Shown here: positions 8,291 to 22,387 of the stretch, in pieces
How the letters are laid out: every line of letters starts with the position of its first letter
How positions within the stretch are numbered: position 1 is the stretch's first letter
NCBI GenBank assembly: GCA_963775895.1
Contig: CAVZKL010000010.1
Span: forward strand, 32,001 to 96,000
Direction: 5' to 3'
Origin: Candidatus Bathyarchaeota archaeon
GTDB taxonomy: Archaea > Thermoproteota > Bathyarchaeia > Bathyarchaeales > Bathycorpusculaceae
Length of the DNA stretch: 64,000 bases
Notes under the pieces: model-generated
Seen by the model: the letters and a program-made list of their open reading frames with translations, nothing else
Database searches by the model: none
Told to the model about the DNA's origin: nothing
Translations under genes and position numbers: made by a program

Positions 8291-8390
8291 TCTGGCTCAG
8301 TCGTCTTAGAAGTTGAGATGAGCGTCGATGCTATAAGACTTATTAAAAGCTATTTACGTTTTTCAGTTTGGAAGGAGTTCAAAGGCGCGA

Positions 8391-8969: not shown

Positions 8970-8978
8970 AATAGGCGT

Positions 8979-9095
8979 TTAGTCCTGTTTCTCTTCCTTT
9001 CCGTAGAATAAGTACAGGAAGACCAGAACGAGCACTATGAACGTAGCGCCCATGAGAACGTACTTGAGCAGCTCAAAGTAAGCTCCTAAGTCCAT
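8979..9095 (-). CDS. 38-aa single-TM small protein (not in ORF track)
   Basis: MDLGAYFELLKYVLMGATFIVLVLVFLYLFYGKEEKQD*. AAGGAG SD and TTAAATA box upstream on the minus strand. Confidence 0.65.
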   Translation of the reverse strand: MDLGAYFELLKYVLMGATFIVLVLVFLYLFYGKEEKQD

Positions 9096-9321
9096 GGAAA
9101 TGTTCTCCTTCCGAAATTCTAATTGAGTTTAAGTATTTAAGCAAATCCATGTGGCGACATCTCCCGCAAAATCCCCTTCTTTTTCTCTCCGTATGAATGT
9201 ATTCTAGACACTTGATACTAACATGTTCGGCGTACCGTCAAACCAGTGTGTTTTAACTGGCATCCTCAGACTATGGCACTAATAAATCTAATGTTCCACT
9301 CTCAGGTTTAGCAACGCATGC

Positions 9322-10016
9322 CTAAGATACCGTTGAGGCGCGCACGAAAAGCATTTGATTTCCGTTCTTGCTGACATGCGTTATTGTTCCGATTTTTCTG
9401 AGCGAATAAGTCATTTTTCGAGATTGATTAACGGATATTCCGAGGCTTTCGGCCAGATTTCTGTTCGAAAAGGGATCAGGCAAATCTTTAGGTAGGACTT
9501 TGAGGAAATCTGTTTTGTGTTCAAAGATTCGTCTTTCAAAAACGCGAATAAGCTTTCTGTCTTCTATGCTTGCGCCTTTCCTTCTCCAGCTTCCTCTTCC
9601 ATCGTTACACCATACTTCTTCTAGCTTCGACCATCAAAACTTCGACGCTGAGATTACCTTTGGAGAAGAGGCTCGGTATTCTGATTAATTCGCTGAAAAG
9701 GTCAGACAGGCGACCCTTCTTCGGAGATCTTCTTCTTCCAAATGTCTCTCCGGTGGCCGTCGATTTATGAACTATCCATTTTTCTCTTGGGTATAGGGTA
9801 GACTAGGCGAACCTTGTGGTCATTGAGCAGACGTAAGAGCTTCGGTTTTATTGCTGAAAAGTTGGCAATCTGTATTTCGATCAACAGGTCTCCTCGCACT
9901 ATGTCCACTATGAAATCGTCTACTTTGGCTTCTAGTTTGTCTCCCTCAAGAAAGTACCATTTCTTTATCGCAGAATGAAGTGAGCTTTCCCTTCCTGAGC
10001 TGAATGCATTATCCAT
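9322..10016 (-). CDS. Conserved hypothetical protein with PD-(D/E)xK nuclease-like N-terminus and C-terminal HTH-like region (two frameshifts)
   Basis: ESSLHSAIKKWY...FIVDIVRGDLLIEIQ; continues after shifts as KWIV...RRSPKKG, NDGRGSWRRKG, FSNRNLAESLGISVNQSRKMTYSLRK to TAG at 9322. Confidence 0.7.
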
Positions 10017-10260
10017 CAAAGTTAAGATCTGCCGCATTTTCGATATCGTATGAGCTTCACCCGATAAGAAGGTTCTCAATGCGCGCGCTCAGATCACGAG
10101 TGTCCGCACTTTAACTGTAATGCTTTTTCTTATATTACAATAAAACTAATGTTCTACTTTCCCTTCCAATGGCAAACTCCTGCAAACAATGACCTAAGAA
10201 AGGAAAGCGCGCGCGTGGCTTGTTAGATATGTATATAATCTATCTTCCTTTCTTCTTTCT

Positions 10261-10461
10261 ATGGATGATGGTATGGTACGGGTTAGTGTGGAAGGAATTA
10301 AGAACGGCCTTTACGCCAACACCGTGGCCCAGACAAAAACGTTCGACATGAACACAGAAGCCGCCATGTTTCCAGACGAATTCTACAGCTTCGTCAAAGA
10401 GTTGCAGGAACAACTAGCAGAAGGAAAAATAGACAGGATACTCATACAAAGACGGCCCTAA
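10261..10461 (+). CDS. 66-aa hypothetical protein bracketed by GC runs
   Basis: ORF with TATATAA box about 25-30 nt upstream; GC runs at 10207 and 10466. Confidence 0.55.
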   Translation: MDDGMVRVSVEGIKNGLYANTVAQTKTFDMNTEAAMFPDEFYSFVKELQEQLAEGKIDRILIQRRP

Positions 10462-10472
10462 TCCTCGCGCGC

Positions 10473-10513
10473 GGTTGGGTTGGCGGTAGAGTTTTATCCA
10501 AATCAAACCAGCC
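10473..10513 (+). repeat. Imperfect palindrome family, copy 1 (GGTTGG..GGTARAGTTTT..CCAAA..AAACC)
   Basis: GGTTGGGTTGGCGGTAGAGTTTTATCCAAATCAAACCAGCC, similar to copies at 18414, 19977, 20029 and 52300. Confidence 0.7.
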
Positions 10514-10714
10514 AATGCTAAATGCGCGCGCTTTTTCTTGTTTTTGGTCTTGGTCAAATCCTTCGACGGCAACATCTACTCAGACAAACCTTGAAAAGGT
10601 TAAAGAGATTGTGTCAACTAGTCTCATATTCTAATATGGTAACCCGAAGAAAACAAGGAACTTGCACTCGTTATTGACCAACTAATTCAACGCGCGCGCT
10701 AAGAAGGAAAAAGA

Positions 10715-10840
10715 ATGAGTGAAAGATACAGAAAATATGGTAGAGCAAAGAACTGCAGATGTAAGAACTGTGGGCTGGAGTTTAAGACAGAAGGAACTCC
10801 TAGGAATTGTCCTAGATGTCATTCAGTCATTGAGGTCTAG
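10715..10840 (+). CDS. 41-aa Zn-ribbon microprotein (not in ORF track)
   Basis: MSERYRKYGRAKNCRCKNCGLEFKTEGTPRNCPRCHSVIEV*, with CxxC...CPxC. Confidence 0.55.
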   Translation: MSERYRKYGRAKNCRCKNCGLEFKTEGTPRNCPRCHSVIEV

Positions 10841-11217
10841 CGCAATGGGGTCTGCTTAGTCTTCTTAAGAATCGCCATTAATCCTTTGAAAATCCCGATG
10901 AATTTCAATCTTCTGTGATATTCACGTGGGTTAGCTTTCTCATCAAATTGGATCTCGTTGGCCTCTTTTGTGTACTTCTTTAACAGCTCCTCCGTGAAAT
11001 TTGGGGAAAATAGTAGGAGAGCTAATTCGTAGGCATTTTGAGTCCCCTCGACTTCTTGTTTTTGCTCGCGTTCTGCCGCAGCTTTGAAAGCTTCTTCCTC
11101 AGTTGTTACTGCGCCGAAAAAAACGTGTAAGGTTCTTAGAGGGTAGCCGAAATTCCAATTCCGTTCAATAGCCGACTTTACTCGACTATCATCAGAACAT
11201 GGAGCCAACACGAATAT
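10837..11217 (-). pseudogene. Probable 5'-truncated hypothetical gene starting at a GC run
   Basis: Protein-like C-terminal 125 codons of ORF 10837..11388. The upstream part overlaps the GNAT gene and crosses the 11218 GC run. Confidence 0.4.
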
Positions 11218-11251
11218 CGCGCGCGCGAAATGAAGCGCACGTACTATGATC

Positions 11252-12052
11252 TTAGAGCTTTTTGACAAAAAAAGAAACTGTATGGTCAACCTTGAACCCG
11301 AGTTTCTGATAAAGCCTTTCTGCGTCTCCTCCTTTATCAGTTTGTAACGTGTGCAGGTCATTCCCTTCTTTGAATGAGTCGGAAACAACTTGCATTGTTA
11401 ACTCTGTTCCTATTCCACGTCTCCTGTATTCTTTGAGTGTTGAAACATTGAGGATGCATCCCGTTTTGTCTTTGGAAAATAAACTGATTGTTCCAACAGG
11501 TTGTCCGTCTGCATAAGCCAAGTAGTTTCTAGCTCCCTTTCGCATCCAATCGACAACAAATCTGTCAAACACTTCCTTCCATTCAGCTGGCATCTCGAAA
11601 CTCTTGACCATCAGACTGTCAAAAAGGTCTATCCCATCTTCTTCTATCTCATTCACCGTGACATTTGGATTAAGTATGTTCTCTGATGTTTTTCCCTCAA
11701 AGACCATGATTGATTGCTCTAACTCTTTCTCAAACCCGTAACGTTCAAGGAGTGAAATGAACGAGGGAAGAGTCAACGGAGAAACTCGAAAACAAGCAAA
11801 AGGAAGTCCTCTCGACATAAAATGACTGATGATCGTTTTGACGAAAACCTCAGCCCTGTCTTCAGTGACGTTGACGTTTGTGACATGGTTAAAGACAATC
11901 ACGGGGATTTGGAGCCAATGAGCAACAATCGCTCCTTCCAGCTCCACAGTCTCGGGGAAAATTTGTACGAAATCGTGCCAAAACTTTTCAAGCCTATCAA
12001 CATTTTCCAAAATGTGCCACCATATCTCGTATGCTCGACACCTAGGAGACAA
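11252..12052 (-). CDS. GNAT-family N-acetyltransferase
   Basis: C-terminal NVSTLKEYRRRGIGTEL (motif A) and AERLYQKLGF. Confidence 0.88.
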   Translation of the reverse strand: MSPRCRAYEIWWHILENVDRLEKFWHDFVQIFPETVELEGAIVAHWLQIPVIVFNHVTNVNVTEDRAEVFVKTIISHFMSRGLPFACFRVSPLTLPSFISLLERYGFEKELEQSIMVFEGKTSENILNPNVTVNEIEEDGIDLFDSLMVKSFEMPAEWKEVFDRFVVDWMRKGARNYLAYADGQPVGTISLFSKDKTGCILNVSTLKEYRRRGIGTELTMQVVSDSFKEGNDLHTLQTDKGGDAERLYQKLGFKVDHTVSFFVKKL

Positions 12053-12154
12053 AAATAGTTGGAATGAGTATTAAAGACTAAGCGCGCGAGCTCGTAAAGC
12101 ATAAATGATTGCTAGCACCATATTCTTTTGTAGTGTACTCCGAGTTGAACAATT

Positions 12155-12634
12155 TTGGATCTTCGATTAAGTGATATGACTCTGATCGGACTTATTCTGT
12201 CAGCGGTTCTGTTCTTCGGTAGCCTAATACTGCTTTATCAAGTCGTCACTCTAAATCCCGTAAGTTCTTTTTCGGTTTCCGTGATAATTCTATCAACGTT
12301 TTTCGGCTTAGGTCTTGGAACAATTATAGGCTGGTTCATAACATTTGACTTGTTGAAAAATCTGAGGCAGAAGACTGAATATAAACAAATTCAATCTAAG
12401 ATCTTCATGTTTACCTTCGTAGTTGGGCTTCCCTTATTTGTGCTAGTTTCTTTGATCGTCATTCGTACTCTTCGTGTGGCTTTCATGGTTGGAGAAATAA
12501 TCTTTGTATTTTCAGCAGTATTCACTTTTTTCAGTACAAGAATGGCTCTTATCACTAGATTTGAACATCAAACTAGAAAAATCATCATGATGGATTACTT
12601 TAACTTGTCTGGCAGAATATTCATAAAATCTTGA
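12155..12634 (+). CDS. Hypothetical four-TM membrane protein
   Basis: Four hydrophobic segments, AT-rich codons, GC runs on both sides. Confidence 0.65.
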   Translation: MDLRLSDMTLIGLILSAVLFFGSLILLYQVVTLNPVSSFSVSVIILSTFFGLGLGTIIGWFITFDLLKNLRQKTEYKQIQSKIFMFTFVVGLPLFVLVSLIVIRTLRVAFMVGEIIFVFSAVFTFFSTRMALITRFEHQTRKIIMMDYFNLSGRIFIKS

Positions 12635-12652
12635 TAGAGAGCGCGCGCTAGC

Positions 12653-13345
12653 CTACGAGGCAGAAGCTATTCTATCCAAAATTGATGAAAGCTTCTCGGG
12701 TTCAGTTATCATTGCATCGTGTCCTGTATCCAGGTCGAAGACGGTTCCTCCTTCGAGTCGTATCTTCTCCGCAAATCCTTCCATCCCAGACTGTGTGCAG
12801 TGCACAAAATAGCGAAGGAGTTTCTTCGCCTTCATTTTTCGGGCATCAAGCTTTTCCTGATGTGTCAGAATCGGCATTGACGTCAAACGTGATTTCATCC
12901 ATTGCTTGTCCCGAGGATCCGTAACTCCGAAATCTTCAGGTTTCCACGAAGGAACCATTCCATTGGCATCCGCACTCCTTTTGAACTGATCTTCCAAGCC
13001 TGGAATCAACGAAAACACGCTTTGCCCGTGTTCAGGCACGATGGCATCAAGATAGACGAGTTTGTTGACGCGGGAACTCCTCTCAGCAACGCCGGTGATG
13101 ATCATTCCTCCGTAACTGTGCCCGACTAAGATGGCATCATTCAGATCTTCAAATTCTAATAGATTAATTATGTCCTGAATGTGAACCGAGAGACCCATGC
13201 TCCGAGACGCTATATGGAAACGTTCCCCCATGCCTGAAAGCGTAGGTGTAACGCATTCGTGTCCTCGCTCAAGTAGTCTAGGCGTGAGCTTCTTCCAGCA
13301 CCAACCTCCATGCCAGGAACCGTGAACCAGAATGAATGTACTCAA
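12653..13345 (-). CDS. Alpha/beta hydrolase (esterase, methylesterase-like)
   Basis: LVHGSWHGGWCW, GHSYGG nucleophile elbow, GHDAMIT. Probable TTG start at 13345. Confidence 0.9.
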   Translation of the reverse strand: MSTFILVHGSWHGGWCWKKLTPRLLERGHECVTPTLSGMGERFHIASRSMGLSVHIQDIINLLEFEDLNDAILVGHSYGGMIITGVAERSSRVNKLVYLDAIVPEHGQSVFSLIPGLEDQFKRSADANGMVPSWKPEDFGVTDPRDKQWMKSRLTSMPILTHQEKLDARKMKAKKLLRYFVHCTQSGMEGFAEKIRLEGGTVFDLDTGHDAMITEPEKLSSILDRIASAS

Positions 13346-13609
13346 ACGCGCTCGCAGCAAGCAAGACCTCCCACTTTAGAAGGTTACGGAGAGCTCATAA
13401 AGGCTCCGTTGACCTAAGGACAGTCCGTTCTCCTCACAACAAAAGCAGCGCGCGCTCCTGCAAACAATACGTTGAAAAAGGAAGCGCGCTTCTCTCCGTA
13501 AAAATCAATATAGAACGAAAAATGTTTGTTAGCTGTTTTTTACAAAAATCGCCTCCACATGGGTGCTTATTTCCTGCCTATTGCTATACATGATTTCGAG
13601 GTGATGTAA

Positions 13610-14065
13610 ATGGTTGAGAAAGAAAATGCAGAAAAGCTCCAGGACCTTGAACAACAAGTTTTCGAGGCGCTTGAGAACCAAAAAAGAAGAGACACCCTTC
13701 GAATAGTAGGAGAAAACAAAGGCATTGCCTACACGAAAATTCTGAATGCAAGCAAGATTTCAGACAGTCCGACTCTCTCATACCACCTTAAAAGCTTAGC
13801 ACCTTTCATCGAGCAGAAAGAGGGAAAGTATCGGCTCACAACAATAGGAAAAGACGCGTATAACCTCTTGCTAAAGACCCATGCCTATGATAAGCTGGCT
13901 TTACTGCAGAAGAATAAGTTTGAAGTCATATTAGGGAATGCTGTGATTTGGCTAGGTGCAATCGCTGCAGCAGTATACTTGGGAACTGACGTATTCCTAT
14001 CTACTGTCATCCTTCCGATACTCGCCGCCATGAGTCTTGTCATAACTTATGGGTTGTTCGAGTAG
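13610..14065 (+). CDS. ArsR-like winged-HTH regulator with two C-terminal TM helices
   Basis: FEALENQKRRDTL...LSYHLKSL...GKYRLTTIG; GAGGTGA SD. Confidence 0.8.
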   Translation: MVEKENAEKLQDLEQQVFEALENQKRRDTLRIVGENKGIAYTKILNASKISDSPTLSYHLKSLAPFIEQKEGKYRLTTIGKDAYNLLLKTHAYDKLALLQKNKFEVILGNAVIWLGAIAAAVYLGTDVFLSTVILPILAAMSLVITYGLFE

Positions 14066-14228
14066 TCCTTTCTTTCTTTAATTTCACCCTCTCTTAGCGC
14101 GCCCTTTCTCAGGTCATGGTTCACAGGAGTGTTTCTTTAGAAGGGAAAGTGGAAAGTTAGATTTATCATAGCATCATGGACACGTTATGGTAAGCGTCTA
14201 ACATTGCGCGCGCTATAATTGCGGCCGC

Positions 14229-14726
14229 TTACTGGTTTTGGATATTATTTGCTTTCCTTCTCTTGTTGTATGTGTATTGATAGTAGCCATAGGAACTCAT
14301 CATTATGAAGAAGGCAATCACAAGCATCATTCCATAGAATCGCGACATCAAGTATCCATACCAGTTCAAGCCTATGCTTCCGATGAAAAGGAGTAGAAGA
14401 TAGATAACGAGGCCTACTGGCCAGCGGTCGGGATGATGATATGGTTTCTTCTGAGTTATCAGCCTATACCAGAGGTCGTAGACCAAGTAAATGATTATAG
14501 GCAATCCAGCTAGAAGACGGCCGGAGTCGTTGCCAATAAGGAGGTTCACTACCCAAAGTGAGGTAAAAGGAACCAGCTGGACACTGAATGCAATTCTCAA
14601 CTTCCACTCCCACCTCGAGAGTTCACGAGCACGCAGAACGTACACGACAAACAAAAAAGCATAGAAGACCAGTGCAAAGAAGACAACAAGATTGTCTAAC
14701 AGACCTGCATCCATTACCGACCACAA
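14229..14726 (-). CDS. Hypothetical multi-TM membrane protein
   Basis: About five hydrophobic helices in the 165-aa ORF. Confidence 0.7.
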   Translation of the reverse strand: MWSVMDAGLLDNLVVFFALVFYAFLFVVYVLRARELSRWEWKLRIAFSVQLVPFTSLWVVNLLIGNDSGRLLAGLPIIIYLVYDLWYRLITQKKPYHHPDRWPVGLVIYLLLLFIGSIGLNWYGYLMSRFYGMMLVIAFFIMMSSYGYYQYTYNKRRKANNIQNQ

Positions 14727-15343
14727 TTAAACTGTACTGATTTCTGTTCAGCTATGACTTTTCCGCAAATGGTTTCTCTGTCCTGCGCTTTAGAATTCTC
14801 TTCAAGTACTACACACTCTTTTGCATAGAAAAAACCTAGGTTGTTGCTTTAGGATGAATCTTAGCTTTAGTTGTCTCAATTCTAGCTCTATATGTAAGTA
14901 ACAACCCTAACGATGATGAAAAACTTCTTGAGGGGCCCTGAAATCTTGCGCGCGCTTTCCACAACTCTTTCTATCATTGTGCTCAAGTCGTTGCGTTCGG
15001 CAATTATGTCCTTCGCTTGAACGCGCTCTAGAGACCGCGTGCCAAATGCCTCTGGACTTCCAATAGAGTTTGCCCGCGCATGCATTCGAACTCGATCATG
15101 ATTGTTCTGTAAGTTTTCTCTGCTTTGTATGGAAGGTAGCTTGATACGAACATTTCAACAGGTATGCCGTCCTTCAGGCTCGGCAGACGAATCTGACCAA
15201 CTCTCCTCAAAACAACCCCCAAACTTGCGGCAGCACCCCAGTGGGTTTTTCCTGCAAGACCTAGCCTCGATCTTATTTCCACATTAATCAACCTCCATTC
15301 TGTTCCTGATTACAGTAAGGTCATATCATCGATAATTGTGTAA

Positions 15344-15399
15344 CTGAAGAATATTCAAATATAACACAAGAAATTTATAGAAAGTTGAACAGTATTCAA
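15344..15399. promoter_or_regulatory. Two 15-bp semi-palindromes around the TATA box of the Lrp gene (candidate autoregulatory operators)
   Basis: CTGAAGAATATTCAA (15344-15358) and TTGAACAGTATTCAA (15385-15399) flank TTTATA at about 15374. Confidence 0.5.
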
Positions 15400-15403
15400 T
15401 AAT

Positions 15404-15868
15404 ATGAAGAACATAAGACCTGAACTGATAAAATTGTTCAAGCAGGGGTATTGCACGCCTCAGATATCCAGAATTGCCAAAGCTATTGACGAACCTTCGA
15501 CGACCATTCATTACAACATAAAGAAGCTGGAAAAAGAAGGCGCAATAGAAACCTACAAGGCCGTTTTTGACTACACAAAAATCGAAGAAGGATTCTGCGC
15601 GTATGTCCTGATCAACGTGTCTCCTTTAGAATACGAACATGATTGGTCGAAATACGAAACGCAAATAGTAAGAGAGCTGGCAAAGCATAAGGAAGTCGAG
15701 AGTTTGGATATAATTACGGGAGAATGGGATATGATTCTCAAAATCAGAACAAAAGACCAAAGCGATTTCTATGACTTCCTAGGGAAAGTCATTAATCGAG
15801 TGGCCATCCAAAAAAGCATATCCCTAGTCTCATTGCGGCAAGTCAAAAGCGATTTCATACTTAGATGA
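15404..15868 (+). CDS. Lrp/AsnC family transcriptional regulator
   Basis: HTH STTIHYNIKKLEKEGAI and RAM domain ITGEWDMILKI. Confidence 0.9.
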   Translation: MKNIRPELIKLFKQGYCTPQISRIAKAIDEPSTTIHYNIKKLEKEGAIETYKAVFDYTKIEEGFCAYVLINVSPLEYEHDWSKYETQIVRELAKHKEVESLDIITGEWDMILKIRTKDQSDFYDFLGKVINRVAIQKSISLVSLRQVKSDFILR

Positions 15869-16117
15869 CGTGCGCGCGAGAATGATTTGTCTCTGTGATG
15901 TCAGACAATGAAAAGACAACATTAGATTTATTGTATCGTCATGAAAACGTTAAGGTTCAAGCGCGCGCGTGCTGACAATAATTGGCTTCGCAACACCAAA
16001 CTCTGGCTATGAACTCTAACATCGTAGTCTTTTACCCACTTTCTTTTGACGTGTCGAATAATAGAAAAGCGCGCGTTTTGAAAGAGTTATATTTGCTGCC
16101 CCACAGTACACTTTGAT

Positions 16118-16612
16118 TTGGAGATAGAGTTGGCTGGTTCAGAGTTTCTATTATCATTGATCCTGTGGTTTGTCCGTGCTTTCGTTTCAAGCCTGATTTG
16201 TTTGCTGATTGGGTACATTGGAATTAGGAGCATCACGCTTTTGACGACGAAGATTAAAGAGTTCGAAAGCATCAAGGGTAATTCTTTGGCAACTAGCCTT
16301 TTTGTTGGCGGTTTTTTTGTTTATGCTGGCTTGGTTGTTTACGGTTCGATGGTTAACCCGTTCTTCCTTTCGCAGTCAGTGACTGTTGGCGCCTACTTCA
16401 ACCTGCAGAGGCTCCTCGTTGTTGTCCTCAGCTTCTTCGTAAGTCTGTTCGTCGGCGGCTTGTTCTACCTAGTCTTTGCCAAACTCAGGCCCTTCGGCAT
16501 TGACCTAGACGACATCAACAAGCATCCTATGGCTGTTGGAGTCTTCCTGCTCTGCTACGAAATCTTTTTGGGGCTCATAATGTTTGCAAGCTTAACCATC
16601 CCAATAGGATAG
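16118..16612 (+). CDS. DUF350-like four-TM membrane protein
   Basis: Internal two-fold pattern IKEFESIKGNSLATSL / IDLDDINKHPMAVGV between TM pairs. Confidence 0.6.
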   Translation: MEIELAGSEFLLSLILWFVRAFVSSLICLLIGYIGIRSITLLTTKIKEFESIKGNSLATSLFVGGFFVYAGLVVYGSMVNPFFLSQSVTVGAYFNLQRLLVVVLSFFVSLFVGGLFYLVFAKLRPFGIDLDDINKHPMAVGVFLLCYEIFLGLIMFASLTIPIG

Positions 16613-16625
16613 CCGAGGACAACAA

Positions 16626-17447
16626 ATGACTCACATGCGATACCTCATCCTATTCTTACTTCTTTGCGCGTCAGCTGTTGCTCTGATCAAAACTGCCAGC
16701 GCGTTTCCAGCTTCAAGCTTCAGTCAGCGATATGGTGATTGGTTTGACAACTGGGGAATAGACAGGAATAACTTCGCAGGTTCTAATGGGTACTTGCCCA
16801 ATCTTGCGTCTGAAACGCTCGGCGATAACAAGGAACTAGCTTATAACATCGGCGAAAGGTTCGAAGAAAACTATCCAAGTAACACCGATAGGGCAGTCGC
16901 CATCCTGAAGTACGTTCAGAGGTGGACAGAGTACGGCTATGACAGCGACAACGTCATCAGAGATGGCGTCGCTCAAGACGATTGGGCTTGGAATGCCGAT
17001 GAAATGGCACACGCTTTCAACGAAACTACAGGCGTCAAAGCCATCGGAGACTGCGAGGACATGGCTTTCCTTTGTGGCACAATCTACGTGGCTGCAGGTT
17101 TGGACGCTGCCATCATTGATGCACCCGGCCATTGTGCTCTACTGATTTGGCTTCCAGAGTTCTCGAACGCAAACAACTATTGGGATATTAGTGACGGCAG
17201 AGGCGCTGGTTGGATATGGGTTGAAGCTACAGGCAGCTCTAACCCTTTAGGTTGGACCCCGCCGGACTTCGAAAACGGCGGATGGACCGCGTATCCAATT
17301 ACAAATTCCTCGGTATTCGTTACTGAACCATTTCAGCCAACTTCGACTTCAACTTCGACTTCGACTGATTTGGATACTCTAGGCATTATTGTTGCCATAA
17401 TTTTTTCAGTCATAGCAGCTCTGGCTAGGCTCAAGCGCACGCACTAA
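16626..17447 (+). CDS. Secreted transglutaminase-like cysteine protease with C-terminal membrane anchor
   Basis: Signal peptide; GDCEDMAFL...PGH...WIWVEATG; Ser/Thr linker, TM helix and basic tail. Confidence 0.75.
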   Translation: MTHMRYLILFLLLCASAVALIKTASAFPASSFSQRYGDWFDNWGIDRNNFAGSNGYLPNLASETLGDNKELAYNIGERFEENYPSNTDRAVAILKYVQRWTEYGYDSDNVIRDGVAQDDWAWNADEMAHAFNETTGVKAIGDCEDMAFLCGTIYVAAGLDAAIIDAPGHCALLIWLPEFSNANNYWDISDGRGAGWIWVEATGSSNPLGWTPPDFENGGWTAYPITNSSVFVTEPFQPTSTSTSTSTDLDTLGIIVAIIFSVIAALARLKRTH

Positions 17448-17905
17448 GTTGAACCTATTTTTTCTTTTTTTGCTTCCTCTATCTTCTTTGCCATTTCATA
17501 GTCCAGAAGGAGGGGAGCGTTCCCCTTGGAAGGTCTGTTGCCGCTTGCGATGTAAACTGTGCCTGGATTGTAAACAGACGCGCTTCCAGATGACACTGCA
17601 ATGGTCCCAGCCATGAAATCTCTAGCTTTGTCAATAGGTATGAAATCGGGGAGAGCGGTTGAATCATAGAATATCCTCCATTCCAAGTCGGTTCCATATT
17701 TATCTCCAATAGCTGCGGAACCTGCTTCGCCGGAAACGACTGTTTCACGCCGCGGTAATGTCCCAACAGCAAAAAGAACCAGTTTGTTGTTGAAGCTAGC
17801 TTCGACAACCTTGACGTCTGGAATGTCTATTATCAGCGACCCTTCAAAAAGGTTCTTCCCCTTTCCCCATCCACTCAGCCATTTAGGACGCTGCATAAGG
17901 ATCAA
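17444..17905 (-). CDS. Hypothetical protein, possibly a fragment
   Basis: 153-aa ORF with no recognisable motif. Confidence 0.4.
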   Translation of the reverse strand: MILMQRPKWLSGWGKGKNLFEGSLIIDIPDVKVVEASFNNKLVLFAVGTLPRRETVVSGEAGSAAIGDKYGTDLEWRIFYDSTALPDFIPIDKARDFMAGTIAVSSGSASVYNPGTVYIASGNRPSKGNAPLLLDYEMAKKIEEAKKEKIGST

Positions 17906-18107
17906 GTTCTAACAGTTTTCTATTCACTATAAAACACCTTCCGCTACAACTCGACAGTCTGCGCGCGCTAAAAGAAAACTTTGCTAAAAGCGTAGCAGTG
18001 GCTCCAAGAAAATAGTCAGGTCATAAAAGCCTGATGAGGGAAACTGAAAAGGAAAAAAAGCATTGACAGATGAAAATGCGATGCTGAAGGTTGCTATTAC
18101 TTGCCGT

Positions 18108-18332
18108 CTATAGCTTGCTTTTGATTGCGTTAATGAGGTCTTGTGGAGAATTGAAATTCATATTAGGCAGTTTGCCTAGAACCGACATCATCTCTGTTGG
18201 GGCGTTGTTATTTTTAAATGCACTTTCTACATTTTGTTTGCTTGCAGGGAAGTTGAGTCCTTTCACGTACTTCATTATCTCTTCGCCTCCAAGACCTTCA
18301 ATCTTATCACCCAAGCCTTTGAACATCGACAT
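18108..18332 (-). CDS. DUF2795-family small protein
   Basis: YVKGLNFPASKQNV...LPNMNFNSPQDL pattern; GGAGGTGA SD. Confidence 0.8.
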   Translation of the reverse strand: MSMFKGLGDKIEGLGGEEIMKYVKGLNFPASKQNVESAFKNNNAPTEMMSVLGKLPNMNFNSPQDLINAIKSKL

Positions 18333-18413
18333 CTAATCACCTCCCCTTAACAACAAATCATAAACACACGCCATTTTCAGACAAAAAAGAATTGTGTTTT
18401 AAACAGAGTTAAA

Positions 18414-18454
18414 GGGTTTGGGTTTGGGGCAAAACTTTACCCCAACCAACCAAC
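18414..18454 (-). repeat. Imperfect palindrome family, copy 2
   Basis: GGGTTTGGGTTTGGGGCAAAACTTTACCCCAACCAACCAAC. Confidence 0.75.
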
Positions 18455-18544
18455 AATATCAATTGCCGAGAACGGTTTATGTTCTTCCGTAAGAACTATT
18501 AGTCTATCCGCACGTGTTCTTCGTGACGATAAACTGTGAAAACA

Positions 18545-18682
18545 TTGAAAAAACGCTTTGAAACAATAGATGAATATATCGCCACATTCCCCCGAAATGT
18601 CCAAGATATTTTAGAAGAACTGAGACAAACAATCCAAAATTCAGCACCAGATGCCAAAGATTGTTTTTGCCACTATTTTTGA
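18545..18682 (+). pseudogene. N-terminal fragment of a DUF1801/YdhG-like gene
   Basis: Own translation MKKRFETIDEYIATFPRNVQDILEELRQTIQNSAPDAK, then unrelated codons and a stop. Confidence 0.7.
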
Positions 18683-18764
18683 TGGCAAGTATGCCCTATG
18701 AACCCCTAATAGACATGGAATAGACACCTATACGAACTTCAACGTTCTGCAAACATAGCGCGCG

Positions 18765-19430
18765 CTATTGTGTTTCCACTCTTCCATCGCAGAACTTGTT
18801 AATGTATTCGAAGGCTATCTGCTTGGATTGGGATAGTGTTTCTGAAGAGATTCCTGGAACACCGCACACGAGCATTGTGACATTCCTGGTGTCTTCTGTT
18901 ACCTTCGAATAATCAGCGTCTCTGTGAGGGTAAAGCGCTACAAGTCTCTCTGCGTCTGAAATTACAGCTTCTCCGCCGTCTAGAACCATGGGTTTATCCA
19001 TTCCTACACCCAGAAAACTCTCACCCTTCAATGCAAATCGCATTACTAATTTATCCTTTAGCTTGTCTTCGTCGAACGCTGCCAAAGCTACTTCTGATTT
19101 GAGGGAGGCCAAATTGTAGGCGTCCACTAGAGTATTAATACTCGGCACTGGTTTTCCTGCTAACACTCTTCTAATTAATGCTTCAGTTGCAGGACGATTT
19201 TTGGTGGGGTCTATTCTTATCTTCCAGAAAAAATCACGGTAAGCTCGGAAAACTGAAACATCCTTCACGGTTTCAAGACTGTATCTTTGCTTAACCTCGC
19301 TGAATATCAACTTCTTAAATTCCTCAAGCTCATCATCTCTTTTCATAACCTTCACATCTTTCACAGAGAAAATCAACAGCTTCAAATCTGGAAAACGGCT
19401 TTTCAGATCTTGACCCATTGTGATATCCAA
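18765..19430 (-). CDS. Stand-alone B3/4 domain protein (PheRS beta editing-like)
   Basis: AYRDFFWKIRIDPTKNRPATEALIRR, INTLVDAYN, AFDEDK. The stop codon overlaps the 18758 GC run. Confidence 0.88.
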   Translation of the reverse strand: MDITMGQDLKSRFPDLKLLIFSVKDVKVMKRDDELEEFKKLIFSEVKQRYSLETVKDVSVFRAYRDFFWKIRIDPTKNRPATEALIRRVLAGKPVPSINTLVDAYNLASLKSEVALAAFDEDKLKDKLVMRFALKGESFLGVGMDKPMVLDGGEAVISDAERLVALYPHRDADYSKVTEDTRNVTMLVCGVPGISSETLSQSKQIAFEYINKFCDGRVETQ

Positions 19431-19453
19431 ACTAGCCGGCCTCCGTTCAACTC

Positions 19454-19873
19454 TTATTCGCCTATGATCTGTAAGATTATGTTTCTGCTTCTGCTACGGA
19501 CATCTAATTCCACAAGAATTATCTGCTGCCATGTTCCCAGAGTTAATCTCCCGTTAACAAAAGGCACGGTGATACTGGGTCCTATAAGTGAGGCTCTTAC
19601 GTGTGAGTGCCCGTTGCCGTCATGCCATGTTTTCTCATGCGCGTACAACAATTTTTTCGGGGCTATACGCTCAAGAATGTTTGGAAGATCCTCCAAAAGC
19701 CCTGGTTCATACTCGATTGTCGTCAATGCTCCAGTGGATCCTGGCAAGAAAACAGTTACAATTCCATCTTTCAATTTACTTTCAACAACAGTTTCAGCAA
19801 CTCGGCTTGTAATATCTAATATGTCGCCTTCTCCTCTGGTTTGTATTGAAAGTTGCTTCGTTCTAACAGTCAA
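19454..19873 (-). CDS. yjbQ: YjbQ/UPF0047 family protein
   Basis: GSTGALTTIEYE, NGHSHVRASLIG, LGTWQQI. Confidence 0.9.
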   Translation of the reverse strand: MTVRTKQLSIQTRGEGDILDITSRVAETVVESKLKDGIVTVFLPGSTGALTTIEYEPGLLEDLPNILERIAPKKLLYAHEKTWHDGNGHSHVRASLIGPSITVPFVNGRLTLGTWQQIILVELDVRSRSRNIILQIIGE

Positions 19874-19976
19874 CCCTTAAACCTCCGAGAAACAAACCAA
19901 GAAACATTCTATAACTGCTGTCTATTAAGAATTAGGCGCGCGCGTCTTACCTGAAGCCCGTGGTTTCAGAGAGAGA

Positions 19977-20058
19977 GGGTAAAGTTTTATCCAAACCAAC
20001 CAAACCAAACCTGACGTCGATGCTGTGTGGGGGGTAAAGTTTTGTTCCAAACCCAGAC
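19977..20058 (+). repeat. Imperfect palindrome family, copies 3 and 4
   Basis: GGGTAAAGTTTTATCCAAACCAACCAAACC (19977) and GGGGGGTAAAGTTTTGTTCCAAACCC (20029). Confidence 0.75.
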
Positions 20059-20067
20059 AAGCGCATG

Positions 20068-20760
20068 CTAGTTTTGGCGTCTGCTCCAGCGCACACTTGC
20101 GGTTGCAATTAGGTTTAGTGTGATTATGACGAGTAGTAGCCAAGCGCTGAAATCAAAACCGAACCCTACGCCCATACTTTCCAAATAGCCTGAGGTCACG
20201 TGGTACACGGAATAGGCTAAAGGAAAACTGTACGTGAGAACACCGCCAGGAGAGATATTACCGGGCTTTAAGAGGCTGGCAACGGGAATCATCGTCCCCC
20301 ATACGTAAGCAAAAATACACGTGAGCCCCAGGATAAGACTGGTGTACAGCCCTTCCAGTTTTCCGAACTTGGACGCCTCAGCTTCCCAACCCCCGCGCAA
20401 CACCGCCAAGTTCAGAATTATCAGTGTTATGAGAAGGTAAGAAGTGATGTCTGGGAAAGCGAAGAGGGCCTGTCCTTGAACGTTCTGGCCTGTCACGTGA
20501 AAGATTGTGCTTATGCCCAGAAACCTGTAATCCAAGACTCCGCCATAAGCCCCTGCGTTGTCGGTCCAGTGAGTCCAGTAAACAAGTAAGTACATCGTGA
20601 CCACGTAGCTTACCAAAGAGCAAACAGCGATAACAAAGTTAATTAAAGTCAGGTTGCCATCCACGAAATCTTTCAATTCATCGGCGAAACTTTTCAATTG
20701 ATCCCCCGACGCGCGTTCTTGAAGCCCAACGCGTGGCTTCTCGCAATAGCCTATAGTCAA
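20068..20760 (-). CDS. Hypothetical membrane protein with internal duplication
   Basis: Two TM-loop-TM halves: GGVLDY...YHV/FHV...LIILNL and GGVLTY...IITLNL. True start uncertain. Confidence 0.65.
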   Translation of the reverse strand: MTIGYCEKPRVGLQERASGDQLKSFADELKDFVDGNLTLINFVIAVCSLVSYVVTMYLLVYWTHWTDNAGAYGGVLDYRFLGISTIFHVTGQNVQGQALFAFPDITSYLLITLIILNLAVLRGGWEAEASKFGKLEGLYTSLILGLTCIFAYVWGTMIPVASLLKPGNISPGGVLTYSFPLAYSVYHVTSGYLESMGVGFGFDFSAWLLLVIITLNLIATASVRWSRRQN

Positions 20761-20861
20761 AGTCTAGCTTAACTGTTCCGCATCCGAAAGCGCGCGCGTC
20801 TTACCTGTATGCTAAGTTAGAAAAAAAGTTGAGGTTGGACGGTAAGGGAGTAGTTTCTGAG

Positions 20862-21191
20862 TCACTCGACAGGATTCCATATGCTCATCGAATATGCGCC
20901 AGGCACCACTAAAGCCAGGAATTCTGGCTGAAGCTTCGCTGTATAATCGGAGTGCATTACTCTGTTGAAGAACTTTTCACAGTCCGCCATGCTCTCGAAC
21001 TCCCACATTTCAACGTACCCACCATAGTTGCCGCCAAACATTTGAGCGAACATCTTGTAGGACTTCAGTTCCTTGAGCCACTTTGCAAAGAATTTCTTCC
21101 ACTTCTTCTTATATGCCGTGAATTCTGCTTGCTTTTCTGGTTTTATTACGTATGTTTCTACCATGAAGATAGACATTCTATCCCCATGCAT
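20862..21191 (-). CDS. NIPSNAP / dimeric alpha-beta barrel-like small protein
   Basis: ETYVIKPEKQAEF...YVEMWEFESMAD pattern. Confidence 0.65.
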   Translation of the reverse strand: MHGDRMSIFMVETYVIKPEKQAEFTAYKKKWKKFFAKWLKELKSYKMFAQMFGGNYGGYVEMWEFESMADCEKFFNRVMHSDYTAKLQPEFLALVVPGAYSMSIWNPVE

Positions 21192-21266
21192 CTATTATGC
21201 CACTACAAGTTATATAATAACTTAAAGGAAATAACCGATCTCCTCAGTCTAGCGCGCGCTAAGTAT

Positions 21267-21677
21267 TTAAGCAGTAGCCTTTTTCCACTCGTTCATGAGG
21301 GAATCGTACAATTCGTCGCGTTCTTCTATGGCCTCGTACCAGTCCAAGTTTTTGGCGAGTTTCTGAGCTATAAGATGGTAACACATGTGCACTTGCCGGT
21401 CAAGCACGCGAAAGTAAAAGTCGTCGCAAGTGCAGAAGTCAGCTTCGGGCATTATAAGGTAGTCTCGTTCTCTTCCAACCACGATCCAAACAATTCTGCC
21501 GCTGGGTTTGAAAACGTACTTTTTCACCCTGTTCTCTTTCAGAGTTTCGAAGGCTCTCGTGAACCTCTGGCCGAAAATGTCGTAGAGCGCCGTTAGATTC
21601 TTGCCCGTCAGTTTGCCTTCTGCTTTTGCTTTCTTGCAGATGCCGTTGAGCAACTCGATCTCAGATTTTTCGTCCAT
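21267..21677 (-). CDS. SWIM zinc-finger protein
   Basis: FCTCDDFYF...CYHLIA (CxC-xn-CxH). Confidence 0.85.
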   Translation of the reverse strand: MDEKSEIELLNGICKKAKAEGKLTGKNLTALYDIFGQRFTRAFETLKENRVKKYVFKPSGRIVWIVVGRERDYLIMPEADFCTCDDFYFRVLDRQVHMCYHLIAQKLAKNLDWYEAIEERDELYDSLMNEWKKATA

Positions 21678-21729
21678 CGATGTTGAACTACCTTGTCGGC
21701 GTTAAGCTTGCGGAGATATGCAGTCTTTT

Positions 21730-22329
21730 CTAATCTATGTGTATCGGTTCGCCTTTGGAATGTGTTTCATCTGTCAACTTGGGAAAAGTGACTTCCAAGA
21801 CTCCGTTTTTGTATCCAGTTTTTGCCTCTGTGACCCTTACTTTCGACGGTAGTTTTACTTCCTTGTAGTACTTGCGTTGTGGATTGTCAACTTCTATCGT
21901 AAGTGAATCTTCAGTTCCGCTCAACTTGATCTCATTCTTGTCAACGCCCGGCAGCTCTGCGACAACGTGGATTTCACCGTCAGTCTCGACAACGTCCACG
22001 AGCGGTTCTCTCTCTTGCTGGACTTGGGGCAACCCGCCTTTTGTCGGCTTGACGTTTCCGAACTCACGGATCTCAGGCTTTCCATCAGAGCCTAACTTCA
22101 CGCTGTAACCGTAAACAAAGGGCCCCCATTCACGGGCTGTTGAGCCGTCTGGCATCTTGCGTTCTCTGACGTAATCTTTTGGAATTCGCGAAGTGAAAGT
22201 CTTGAACTCGTCTTCCATCATCTTCTCCATTTCTTCAAACATCTTGTCAATGTCGTCAAAACCCCAATTATTGAAGAATGGGGAACGTTTCTTTTTGAAC
22301 CATTCGTGGGAGTCGTCTTCTGATGACAT
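21730..22329 (-). CDS. hsp20: Archaeal small heat-shock protein Hsp20
   Basis: GPFVYGYSVKLGSDGKPEIREFGNV, AELPGVDK, YKNGVLEV. Confidence 0.93.
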   Translation of the reverse strand: MSSEDDSHEWFKKKRSPFFNNWGFDDIDKMFEEMEKMMEDEFKTFTSRIPKDYVRERKMPDGSTAREWGPFVYGYSVKLGSDGKPEIREFGNVKPTKGGLPQVQQEREPLVDVVETDGEIHVVAELPGVDKNEIKLSGTEDSLTIEVDNPQRKYYKEVKLPSKVRVTEAKTGYKNGVLEVTFPKLTDETHSKGEPIHID

Positions 22330-22387
22330 TACATCACTGTTCTAGTCTGAGAAGACGTTTCTCTATAAGCGTTATGCCGATTATCGC

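Follow-up and report, generated by a model that had tools for sequence, protein, structure and literature searches.

The 12.1-kb block at positions 9145–21259 of the window, as we call the whole 64,000-nucleotide stretch of Candidatus Bathyarchaeota DNA analysed, is read here, with confidence and doubt in about equal measure, as a variable region of separately acquired modules of one gene or one small operon each, with the palindrome GCGCGCGC at the joints and a cut-and-join activity that would have made them. The block has a GC content of 43.7%, as compared to 47.7% for the genome carrying the window (G000), and is missing at the orthologous site in nine of the ten same-genus genomes compared (G001–G010), with abutting flanks in G001 and G003–G010. 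It lies between two copies of the 14-bp direct repeat TAAGTATTTAAGCA, recognized from the sequence on the left (9131–9144) and from the sequence and empty-site alignment on the right (21260–21273, immediately past the last GC run); all five empty sites read at sequence level have one copy. The right end of the block is itself the last run of alternating G and C (21252–21259), and there is no GC run at the left edge (9145). An earlier, sequence-only reading had placed the start of the unit structure at 10081 instead of 9145; its expectation that the locus is not conserved as a block agrees with the nine empty sites.

The insertion spot, between two conserved genes, is used recurrently. The flank gene is present on 80 metagenome contigs, of which 70 have an uninterrupted site, two are too short to judge, and eight differ; these include L068, where a separate 3.4-kb insert starts with GCGCGCGC right after the stop codon, and inserts of the type found in G002, which share the left end of the island. 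In G002 itself an insert with this left end occupies the same spot, and tyrosine-recombinase matches are present on both flanking contigs. The block as a whole bears the marks of an integrative element, namely its 14-bp direct repeat and its conserved end sequence; it includes one end of an element of the integrase type. This non-coding end sequence of about 215 nt (the leader) belongs to an integrative-element family; its 5' part, recognized from copies elsewhere, occupies 9145–9300 (plus strand). Copies occur in G001 (with the C-terminal fragment of an integrase about 550 nt away), G004, G008, G009 (two) and G000:C19. Intact copies terminate in a GC run, the intact form is present in metagenome contigs, and the leader joint 9300 to 13456 was seen in four metagenome sequencing runs. 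Joints and alignment place the 3' piece of the leader at 13456–13483, preceded by a GC run (13448–13455) and ending in GCGCGC (13484–13489; whole feature 13448–13490, plus strand). A second, partial leader copy detected by alignment (10105–10215, plus strand) ends in GC run 2 (10207–10215) and resembles G000:C9:2681–2790, G000:C7:31719–31790 and window positions 14097–14166. At window position 13448 and at G000:C19:63772, runs stand at breaks in the leader, at points where intact copies have no run, and these two joints of a run to a broken copy fit cutting and end-joining better than conservative crossover.

The window contains 24 copies of GCGCGCGC, where shuffles predict 0.72, and 12 copies of CGCGCGCG, where they predict 0.63. 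Sixteen alternating G/C runs of at least 8 nt lie within 10081–21259, and seven further runs of 6–7 nt between 9338 and 20710; the island holds the largest array among the 263 runs of the 1.77-Mb genome (about one per 6.7 kb). The core of a run is the exact 8-bp palindrome, its commonest form being AGCGCGCGCT, and lengths above 8 nt are consistent with chance flanking bases. Of the flanking bases, the first has a bias (T in 65%) and the second shows a weak excess of A; past these two no conservation was found, and nothing is conserved beyond 10 bp. A fixed 8-nt core with a biased flanking base points to a specific site and not a microsatellite. The claim that each interval between runs holds about one gene was confirmed: of the 18 gaps between the 19 gene calls of the island, 11 contain a run of at least 8 nt and 12 a run of at least 6 nt, and among gaps of at least 50 nt the proportion with a run of at least 8 nt is 11/13. 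The shortest run-to-run intervals measure 39–50 nt.

The island opens, beyond the leader, with a frameshifted pseudogene of a 237-aa protein (9322–10079, minus strand, in three reading frames; intact in G003) which has no Pfam or NCBIfam match and, judged by eye, may be PD-(D/E)xK-like; at E ≤ 1e-50 the protein is found in five of 41 genomes, including the pseudogene of G000, with a weak partial match in G039. GC run 1 (GCGCGCGC, 10081–10088) precedes unit A (10206–10466, plus strand), which comprises a TATA-like box and a 66-aa ORF (10261–10461) between runs at 10207–10215 and 10466–10473. It is followed by a gene-free interval between two runs (10474–10523, plus strand) with one GGTAGAGTTTTATCC-type element, and by a Zn-ribbon unit (10524–10843, plus strand; run at 10524–10531, 41-aa ORF at 10715–10840) whose ribbon has matches only below Pfam cut-offs. 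The run at 10691–10699 lies inside this unit and not between units; one metagenome variant of the unit lacks it. A 120-aa ORF fragment without family match (10837–11199, minus strand) and a run (CGCGCGCGCG, 11218–11227) lead to a GNAT acetyltransferase unit (PF00583; 11252–12052, minus strand) with a 7-nt run upstream (12082–12088). A 159-aa membrane protein (12155–12634, plus strand) and an alpha/beta hydrolase (PF12697; 12653–13360, minus strand) are convergent, with a run between them (12641–12648). The unit of a DUF7347 HTH-TM protein identified by Pfam (13484–14102, plus strand; ORF 13610–14065) has a 6-nt run on each side. Next come a run at 14206–14213, a 165-aa membrane protein (14229–14726, minus strand; in metagenome run X5 a GC run abuts at 14740), a run at 14948–14955 within a stretch of ORF fragments (14888–15291), and an Lrp/AsnC regulator unit (PF01037; 15287–15878, plus strand; ORF 15404–15868) ending in a run (15872–15878).

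Beyond a run at 15961–15969, a three-gene unit (16070–17968) extends between runs at 16069–16075 and 17961–17968 and comprises a DUF350 gene (16118–16612, plus), a 273-aa ORF (16626–17447, plus) and a 153-aa ORF (17444–17905, minus). The DUF2795 gene (18108–18332, minus strand) has one GGGGTAAAGTTTTGCCCC element upstream (18415–18453). The last base of the run at 18758–18765 is the first base of the stop codon of the B3/4 gene, which with UPF0047 (yjbQ) forms a two-gene operon on the minus strand (PF01894, PF03483; 18765–19873). The run at 19936–19944 is followed by TCTTACCTG, as is that at 20790–20798; between them lie two GGGTAAAGTTTT elements (about 19970–20055) and a 230-aa membrane protein (20068–20760, minus strand). 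A NIPSNAP-like gene (PF07978; 20862–21191, minus strand) precedes the terminal run. Genes thus lie on both strands, in line with the mixed orientation proposed earlier, and reading by eye suggests a TATA-like box in every unit. The sequence-only gene list held for GNAT, the alpha/beta hydrolase, the DUF7347 HTH protein with its hydrophobic tail, Lrp/AsnC, DUF350, DUF2795, B3/4, UPF0047 and NIPSNAP, the Zn ribbon staying below cut-off; "transglutaminase" for 16626–17447 found no support in Pfam or NCBIfam.

Single units recur in other contexts, and in other species too, with 90–99% DNA identity, versus 72–81% for the core flank genes compared with relatives. Unit A is 94–99% identical in eight other contexts (G000:C7, G009:C15, L028–L033) with unrelated flanks; its homology stops at GC runs or a few bases away, and near-identical copies differ by several bases in the distance from run to unit. 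Copies were likewise found of the Zn-ribbon unit (96% in G009:C27, 95% in G000:C22, 92% in G000:C11), the GNAT unit (82% in G005:C7, covering 11257–12083), the hydrolase (an 87% paralogue at G000:C20:926–1626), the DUF7347 unit (95% in G005:C8, covering 13484–14095), the Lrp/AsnC unit (93% at L032:6657–7248) and the three-gene unit (91% in G009:C20 with both edges at runs, 90% in G005:C18). Runs bound unit U2 of related loci in three contexts, and this unit and its neighbour stand in opposite order in L029 and L032; similarly, L031 and a contig of metagenome run X1 have the Zn-ribbon unit upstream of unit A, a swap of their order in the island. Ten of the 20 distinct homology edges are within 10 nt of a run of at least 7 nt, as are 4.3% of island positions overall and 16.5% of the non-coding positions; the joints at 9300/9303, 10843 and 15287 have no run. 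In G000 a run lies 8 nt upstream of the start of homology with G008, which has no run there. Edges of genome-internal repeats fall within 10 nt of a run in 26 of 235 cases versus 0.5% of random positions. In four metagenome sequencing runs, units differ more than 10-fold in summed contig depth. An excision allele, i.e. a run-to-run join across a whole unit, was not among the joints listed, 15 of 19, from four metagenome runs, whose contigs are short and lose rare variants, and high-identity copies of island units were not found in motif-rich genomes of other families. The proposal of independently exchanged cassettes is partly supported, in that the block is not conserved and single intervals act as separate units; a crossover at the palindrome fares less well, given the variable offsets between run and unit and the two joints to broken run-free sequence.

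Genome-wide, intergenic DNA, which by crude gene calls makes up 17% of the total, holds 211 of the 263 runs (80%). In comparison with a single run-free relative (G018), again on our crude gene calls, a run is present in 3 of 810 syntenic gaps and in 30/248, 69/510 and 72/428 gaps of the non-syntenic classes; for gaps of 50–400 nt the figures are 0/304 syntenic versus 123/713 non-syntenic (Fisher p = 4e-21). Runs are thus nearly confined to places where gene order or content departs from that of the run-free relative, and in the size-matched set conserved genes never use a run. Run density is 1.29 per kb in convergent gaps versus 0.43 per kb in divergent ones. AGCGCGCGCT has 7–114 copies in each of the ten same-genus genomes, while most of the other genera in the order have 0–1. 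Across 301 Bathyarchaeia genomes its abundance is patchy: lineages f26, f35 and f36 and parts of f1 are rich in it, whereas values close to zero were found in f24, f34, f17, f11 and f7.

Comparison of recombinase, integrase, Ku and methyltransferase distributions revealed no candidate enzyme. Tyrosine recombinases (PF00589) are carried by motif-rich and motif-poor genera alike, the one integrase family found inside arrays is sporadic across the class, Ku is found mostly in motif-poor lineages, a C5 methyltransferase occurs in two of the ten other same-genus genomes and not in G000, and N4/N6 methyltransferases are present everywhere. Since no recombinase was found, the "symmetric crossover site" of the sequence-only reading keeps its conjectural standing. 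The lack of a candidate enzyme and of an excision allele, the joints without a run, the absence of high-identity unit copies from motif-rich genomes of other families, and a synteny comparison based on one relative and crude gene calls all count against the explanation we prefer. So do the 10-bp site, which is shorter than those of known site-specific recombinases, and decayed forms such as GCACGC, given which many runs may be old scars.

Known systems share some of these features. REP/BIME elements are intergenic palindromic motifs, clustered and biased to gene ends and convergent gaps, as the runs are, but REPs are hairpin-forming units of 20–40 nt spread by RAYT transposases, whereas the runs are 8 nt long, do not fold and mark changes in gene content. 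Archaeal integrative elements use tyrosine integrases of the SSV/pTN3 type; the direct repeat, conserved end and reused site of the island and the integrase remnants at related loci resemble them, yet integration would explain how the block arrived and neither its 16 internal runs nor how single units move. The dif (pdif) modules have 28-bp Xer sites of two arms and a spacer; here at most 10 bp are conserved and the arrays lie on the chromosome of an archaeon. As described in two reports on Acinetobacter plasmids (PMC6449649, PMC13141974), pdif modules are, like the present units, small gene modules bounded by short sites, found in either orientation and shuffled between replicons, with no recombinase gene inside the module. 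HIP1 (GCGATCGC) of cyanobacteria (PMC4390886, PMC5861425) is likewise a GC-rich 8-bp palindrome in lineage-dependent excess and of unsettled function; it is linked to orphan methyltransferases and can exceed one copy per gene (PMC5861425). The runs, by contrast, lie mostly between genes and almost only at non-syntenic joints, at their much lower density, and no methyltransferase link was found for them.

Among other explanations, a passive hot spot is unlikely, though well short of negligible: (GC)4 is a Z-DNA-prone palindrome, and breaks or stalled replication followed by microhomology repair would need no dedicated enzyme. The empty enzyme search and the imprecise joints, some linking a run to run-free sequence, suit this, as does a second array-associated element with 21 of 24 copies within 1.5 kb of a run, its flanks being other simple tracts or tracts of alternating purine and pyrimidine, for instance (GT)n, (CA)n and GCACGCGC. 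Fragility, however, leaves unexplained why lineages of like base composition differ in motif abundance and why runs flank inserts on both sides; the fixed core with its biased flank is not a spread of lengths, and Ku does not follow the motif. Rather improbable is repeated tandem integration of small run-ended elements whose integrases were later lost. The direct repeat, the run-ended leader near the integrase fragment of G001, the G002 insert with its recombinase matches, the tandem units of L068 and G000:C19, each opening with the same end motif, and the location of four of the ten integrase matches of G000 in or beside arrays all agree with it, but 263 runs face just a few leader copies, intervals shrink to 39–50 nt, units have no end sequence in common apart from the run and change order one by one, and integrase families do not follow the motif.

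We give little credence to the runs being regulatory punctuation, i.e. a terminator aid, insulator or protein site of each accessory transcription unit, with homology stopping at the run merely as the unit stops there. The excess in convergent gaps, run-to-gene-end distances below 20 nt in 50 of 226 cases, the T after the run and the apparent TATA-like boxes would fit; the 304 size-matched syntenic gaps without a run, the decay of runs without loss of the unit, runs that border gene-free intervals or interrupt the non-coding leader, and the inability of a lone 8-nt palindrome to form a hairpin do not. That the island is a true integron or CALIN, with promoterless attC-bounded cassettes moved by IntI, is scarcely credible. 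Integrons do share with the island about one accessory gene per interval, cargo of the same kind (GNAT, glyoxalase, SnoaL, small membrane proteins, regulators), one site added per insertion and units that recur in other contexts and orders. Their attC sites are structured and 60–140 nt long, unlike the exact 8-bp palindrome, and here there is no linked IntI, orientation is mixed, units apparently have their own promoters and joints are imprecise. A hairpin scan found no attC-like imperfect hairpins at the boundaries, only the short palindromes of the runs, and the 122-kb contig of the window carries no tyrosine recombinase or integrase, which bears out the distinction from integrons drawn earlier. 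The scan also returned a few unrelated short repeats away from unit boundaries. Archaeal integrons exist, and their cassettes are described as generally sharing one orientation, with attC folding (Ghaly et al. 2022, PMC9668308), as opposed to the genes in both directions here.

We favour sequence-specific cut-and-join over conservative crossover because joints are imprecise and some connect a run to ordinary sequence. A lineage-specific activity would cut at GCGCGCGC and join the resulting ends, usually run end to run end, which would restore the palindrome, and occasionally run end to an ordinary break. Insertion at an existing run would leave a run on either side of the insert, so that runs would multiply where earlier insertions occurred and arrays would grow at about one gene per interval; units could take either orientation because the site is symmetric. 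The putative enzyme need not be encoded beside the arrays. Literature searches found no description of such GCGCGCGC-joined modules, and the pattern points to an undescribed mode of gene insertion and shuffling.

A search of positions 8000–23500 of the window against 40 relatives showed that in nine of ten same-genus genomes (G001 and G003–G010) the DNA matching the window up to position 9143 directly abuts the DNA matching it from 21260 onwards. The sequence-only reading had described the region as a series of one-gene units in mixed orientation, and had proposed a comparison of the locus across strains for gain, loss or inversion of single units; the block turned out not to be conserved, being absent from the site in those nine genomes. 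[quoted passage not shown] In the window, TAAGTATTTAAGCA occurs at 9131–9144 and again at 21260–21273. The two copies in the window and the single copy in the empty sites indicate that positions 9145–21259 are a 12.1-kb insert with a 14-bp direct repeat, as expected of an integrative element of the tyrosine-integrase type, which has direct repeats at both ends and one copy in the empty site. The right end of this island is its last GC run, i.e., an alternating G/C tract usually of at least 8 nt; no run is present at the left end.

Among 80 metagenome contigs carrying the 136-aa gene, counted individually, 70 have the uninterrupted site, two are too short to tell, and eight are different. Four of these eight variant sites match the type of insert found in the congener G002. 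Another of the eight, contig L068, contains a 3.4-kb insert which opens with GCGCGCGC directly after the stop codon and consists of two tandem elements, each closing with the motif of the window's left end. The insertion spot is used repeatedly. In one lineage (contigs L053–L058 and L060), the small membrane-protein gene beside the hot spot has another neighbour, and a GC run is located exactly at the changeover; contigs L052 and L074 show the same changed neighbour, but without a run.

The left end of the island (9145–9300) is the first part of a conserved non-coding leader of about 215 nt, which in G001, G004, G008 and G009 is preceded by the 3' end of a small ORF and closes in a GC run. In G001, about 550 nt separate the leader from a C-terminal fragment of an integrase. 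The first 42 nt of the island's left end recur in the insert at the hot spot of G002, and the contigs C6 and C7 flanking this site have one tyrosine-recombinase (PF00589) match each. The leader, the integrase fragment and the recombinase matches suggest that the block probably arrived as, or within, an integrase-type element whose integrase has since been lost. No integrase gene was found inside the island, and none of the ten PF00589 matches of G000, the window's own genome, is located on the 122-kb contig C10 from which the window is taken. Searches with Rfam and ARAGORN found no RNA genes in the island, in the leader copies or in a set of repeats on G000:C19. The latter (L138) comprise three direct copies of a sequence of about 55 nt (63631–63685, 66733–66787 and 69352–69406), which are 3.1 and 2.6 kb apart and enclose DUF3795, nitroreductase, and PQQ propeller genes, the last with a dockerin. 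The repeat resembles the 3' end of a tRNA to which the leader's first 25 nt are joined; neither ARAGORN nor Rfam found an intact tRNA nearby. In the window itself, Rfam predicts a 113-nt tRNA (56 bits) at 7001–7113 that was missed by ARAGORN, and an intron is probable.

The GC runs perceived in the sequence-only reading are genuine. Dinucleotide-preserving shuffles predict 0.72 copies of GCGCGCGC and 0.63 copies of CGCGCGCG in the window, as compared to 24 and 12 observed, respectively. The stretch 10081–21259 contains 16 alternating G/C runs of at least 8 nt, plus seven of 6–7 nt. The assembly (1.77 Mb, 28 contigs) has a total of 263 runs of at least 8 nt, whereas the run-poor relative G018 has 7. 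The runs are clustered, forming 19 arrays of at least four runs spaced at most 3 kb apart (median spacing, 993 nt), the largest of which is that of the window. The core of the run is a fixed octamer. Among the 263 runs, GCGCGCGC accounts for 126 and CGCGCGCG for 29, and there are 79 nine-mers and 26 ten-mers; by arithmetic on these counts, 108 (about 40%) exceed 8 nt, approximately the expectation from chance flanking G or C. A clear bias is confined to the base next to the run (T, 65%), and the composition is close to background from the second or third position outward; due to this T bias, AGCGCGCGCT is the commonest extended form, and farther out there is no conservation. Together, the fixed 8-nt core and the biased flank point to recognition of a sequence rather than to a generic alternating tract.

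Each of the ten same-genus genomes contains 7–114 copies of AGCGCGCGCT and 0–4 of the reversed control word, whereas most other genera of the order have 0–1 copies of AGCGCGCGCT. Among 301 Bathyarchaeia genomes, the motif is abundant in scattered genera of family f1, present in nine of ten f26 genomes (eight with 16–119 copies), and found in 13–131 copies in f35 and 83 copies in one f36 genome; it is near zero in families f24, f34, f17, f11 and f7. The motif-rich lineages are g1, g34, g39, g40, f26, f35 and f36. This scattered abundance across families suggests a transferable agent. Although the assemblies are metagenome-derived, the motif is also plentiful in the single-contig genome G001 (114 copies). 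A literature search found no description of GCGCGCGC in archaea or in intergenic DNA. Judged by titles and the first lines of abstracts, the listed papers in which the word appears deal with k-mers or motifs of eukaryotes, and those on Bathyarchaeia and integrons or mobile elements describe no such system.

According to our own, crude gene calls, seven genes of the island are on the plus and twelve on the minus strand, and 11 of the 13 gaps of at least 50 nt between them contain a run. The mixed orientation noted in the sequence-only reading was thereby borne out, and TATA-like boxes are visible by eye upstream of several ORFs. Most gene names of that reading are backed by Pfam, but the "transglutaminase" (16626–17447) is unsupported and the Zn ribbon remained below the cut-offs. 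The cargo units share no end sequence beyond the run, and gene-free intervals between runs are as short as 39–50 nt. At 19936–19953 and 20790–20807, two runs are each followed by the same 9 nt (GCGCGCGCG TCTTACCTG), possibly a duplicated joint or a common unit end. A Pfam scan of 17 other array regions took in 145 of their 188 ORFs. Within one GC-run array, a heliorhodopsin gene (L046:6402–7112, i.e., G000:C20:64901–65611) is split into adjacent ORFs of 126 and 110 aa, corresponding to profile positions 23–134 and 138–241, due to either a frameshift or an assembly error.

Several units recur elsewhere, some of them in changed order. Unit A (10206–10466) is composed of a 66-aa ORF and a TATA-like box. 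It matches G000:C7:32365–32625 at 98.9% identity and a copy in G009 at 99%, while the core flanks of G009 are merely 72% identical; six further Bathyarchaeia assemblies contain it at 94–98% DNA identity. In all eight copies, similarity sets in at a GC run or no more than a few bases from one and stops at CCCTAATCCTC(TTT), and the flanks are unrelated. Six of the eight copies are followed by a run, either immediately or at a distance of up to about 30 nt, with none in the aligned stretch of L028 and L032. Unit A was not found in IMG/VR. The Zn-ribbon unit, which begins on the run at 10524, follows unit A in the window and precedes it in L031 and in one contig of the metagenome run X1. Another unit, U2, is run-bounded in L029, L032 and L028; in L029 it follows the unit-A block, and in L032 it precedes that block. 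Unit A, U2 and the Zn-ribbon unit thus move as units between contexts. Similarly, a three-gene unit (16070–17968) has a 91% copy in G009:C20 with runs at both edges, positions 13484–14095 have a 95% copy in G005:C8 with 6-nt runs at both edges, and the Lrp unit stops on the run 15872–15878.

For matches of at least 150 nt and 85% identity to loci outside G000, 10 of 20 distinct homology edges are located within 10 nt of a run of at least 7 nt, as compared to 4.3% expected over the whole island and 16.5% over its non-coding positions. Within G000, 26 of 235 repeat edges are within 10 nt of a run, versus 0.5% of random positions. Contigs from four metagenome runs, representing four studies, leave the window at runs, with loose ends at 10206, 10219, 13489 and 14740; none of the 15 joints listed from these contigs is a run-to-run joint skipping a whole unit. 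Summed metagenome depth, which covers all organisms of a sample together and is not copy number, differs more than 10-fold between units; in X1 it is 681 over 10236–10719 and 42–80 on the core flanks. Island DNA matched five motif-rich genomes of other families at just 64–70%, apart from one 35-nt match at 89%. The contig ends C6/C22, C13/C25 and C6/C12 of G000, a metagenome-derived genome with contamination rated 3.5%, overlap at 97–98.5% over 3.4–5.5 kb, suggesting strain variants or duplicated assembly.

The association of runs with gene order was assessed genome-wide by tblastn of the crude G000 gene calls against a single relative, G018, which belongs to another genus of the same family (1.63 Mb, 98% complete, 7 runs). 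A run is present in 3 of the 810 gaps whose flanking genes are adjacent in G000 as well as in G018. The corresponding numbers are 30 of 248 for gaps whose genes are both conserved but not neighbours in G018, 69 of 510 where one gene is absent from G018, and 72 of 428 where both are absent. When gaps of 50–400 nt are considered, 0 of 304 syntenic and 123 of 713 (17%) non-syntenic gaps hold a run (Fisher p = 4e-21). Elsewhere in the window, blocks of synteny with congeners also start at runs (42232 and 59569); the run at 59555 lies 8 nt upstream of the start of homology to G008, which has no run there. Runs thus mark new joints and are not a general trait of intergenic DNA. Their density is highest in convergent gaps and near stop codons, as expected if insertions persist where they are least harmful. 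Simple insertions between genes adjacent in G018 did not qualify as run-bounded events, since both joints lack a run in 34 of 37 cases; the insertions are mostly single small ORFs that may be diverged or spurious genes. Of the 2024 crude G000 ORFs, 634 have no G018 match at E ≤ 1e-5, among them 223 of at least 170 aa that are not strongly hydrophobic.

As regards its behaviour, the region is most similar to arrays of integron cassettes or pdif modules, yet it lacks their defining features. The notion of cassettes put forward in the sequence-only reading is partly supported, in that the units behave separately and recur elsewhere; a true integron is rejected, given the lack of attC-like hairpins, a linked integrase and a single orientation. 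According to PMC9668308, archaeal integrons are arrays of one orientation with folding attC sites. The attC sites of integrons are imperfect palindromes of 60–140 nt with R''/R' cores; an inverted-repeat scan of 9000–21400 found no imperfect palindromes of this length at unit boundaries. Five of the nine pairs detected consist of a run's own short palindrome or contain a run, and four are unrelated short repeats. Integrons have the tyrosine integrase IntI beside the array, although CALIN elements do not require it, whereas no PF00589 match lies on contig C10. Integron cassettes are mostly promoterless and of one orientation, whereas the island genes occupy both strands, several with TATA-like boxes. 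The pdif (Xer) site consists of two arms and a spacer (28 bp), but the GC run has no conserved arms. REP/BIME elements are hairpin-forming units of 20–40 nt that go with a RAYT transposase; the run is a unit of 8–10 nt lacking this hairpin feature. MITEs and DDE transposons have element-specific terminal inverted repeats and target duplications, whereas the island units share the run alone, and high-copy IS-like repeats were not found in G000. Like HIP1, GCGCGCGC is a hyper-abundant 8-bp palindrome, but the likeness is limited to the over-represented octamer; a cognate orphan methyltransferase as in HIP1-type systems had no matching candidate in searches with PF00145 and PF01555. A HIP1 review (PMC4390886) contains neither "GCGCGC" nor "archaea".

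The joints themselves argue for cutting followed by joining and against a conservative site-specific crossover. Among near-identical unit A copies, the spacing from the run to the first conserved base varies by several bases. In the window the leader is interrupted, with its 3' piece (13456–13490) following the run at 13448, and another leader copy on G000:C19 is truncated by the run at 63772. At the points matching these two breaks the intact leader is free of runs, and a run end therefore was joined to an ordinary break. Moreover, the joints at about 9300, 10843 and 15287 are devoid of any run, and units are retained next to decayed runs such as GCACGC or GCGTGCGC. Overall, the chances that a dedicated cut-and-join activity lies behind the joints appear about evenly balanced. 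An insertion at a run would leave a run on each side, so that runs would multiply where insertions had already happened; this would explain the arrays, the occurrence of about one gene per interval, the gene-free intervals of 39–50 nt, and the mixed orientation.

None of the candidate enzymes follows the motif. PF00589 proteins are common in all genera and show no correlation with it in 41 relatives and G000; those near arrays, judged by eye, presumably resemble SSV-type integrases with tRNA-derived N-termini. A 237-aa protein, represented by the pseudogene with which the island opens, was dismissed as agent, occurring in five of 41 genomes including G000, with one weak partial match in addition. 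A 224-aa integrase inside an array has matches in 60 of the 301 genomes, motif-rich and motif-poor alike, sporadically across the class. The C5 methyltransferase PF00145 was detected in two of the ten other same-genus genomes and not in G000, and the N4/N6 methyltransferase PF01555 occurs in motif-rich and motif-poor genomes alike, G000 having no more than a weak match. Ku (PF02735) likewise does not track the motif; matches were detected in 89 of the 301 genomes, chiefly those of families f24 and f34 and of genus g33. At G000:C22:28789–30452, a Ku gene (E = 5e-41) adjoins a 287-aa ORF, neither of which has a match in G018 at E ≤ 1e-5; the two may form an archaeal end-joining module.

A second repeated element, with the constant centre GGGGTAAAGTTTTATCC(C), is located at 10474–10523, 18415–18453, 19970–20000 and 20025–20055 of the window. 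It is flanked by (GGTT)n or (GT)n on one side and by (CCAA)n, (CA)n or GCACGCGC-type tracts on the other. Of its 24 genome copies, 21 are within 1.5 kb of a GC run, versus 29% of random positions, and summed over metagenome contigs it reaches a very high depth. The idea of a hairpin with co-varying arms was rejected, since just four of 43 loose matches have at least nine complementary flank bases. Two close AGCGCGCGCT sites occur on 33 viral contigs, 27 of which are above 55% GC, where runs are less surprising, and six at 46–55%. The viral contigs L153, L158 and L183 (IMG/VR) have 15–25 GC runs in 12–14 kb, a number that may be due to chance at their GC content of 66–68%.

Bathyarchaeia are among the most abundant archaea of sediments, peat and wetlands; to our knowledge, how they gain accessory genes is largely unknown. 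In G000, one 8-bp word predicts new gene order, being found in none of the 304 conserved and 17% of the non-conserved gaps of matched size. Tentatively, and with more doubt than confidence, we propose that several lineages possess an undescribed gene-capture system. Its enzyme would cut the bare 8-bp GCGCGCGC and insert or exchange promoter-bearing modules in either direction, the site being duplicated with each insertion so that arrays grow by themselves. Such a system, spread horizontally between families, would represent an archaeal equivalent of integrons and dif modules with a minimal site, and the source of most novelty in gene order in these genomes. The motif counts for 301 genomes provide a phenotype for scanning gene families, which renders the question testable. 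If there is an enzyme behind the runs, it would represent a gene-insertion system with an unusually small site, possibly useful as a tool; if there is none, the runs would clearly illustrate how a short palindrome prone to form Z-DNA shapes the architecture of a genome in nature.
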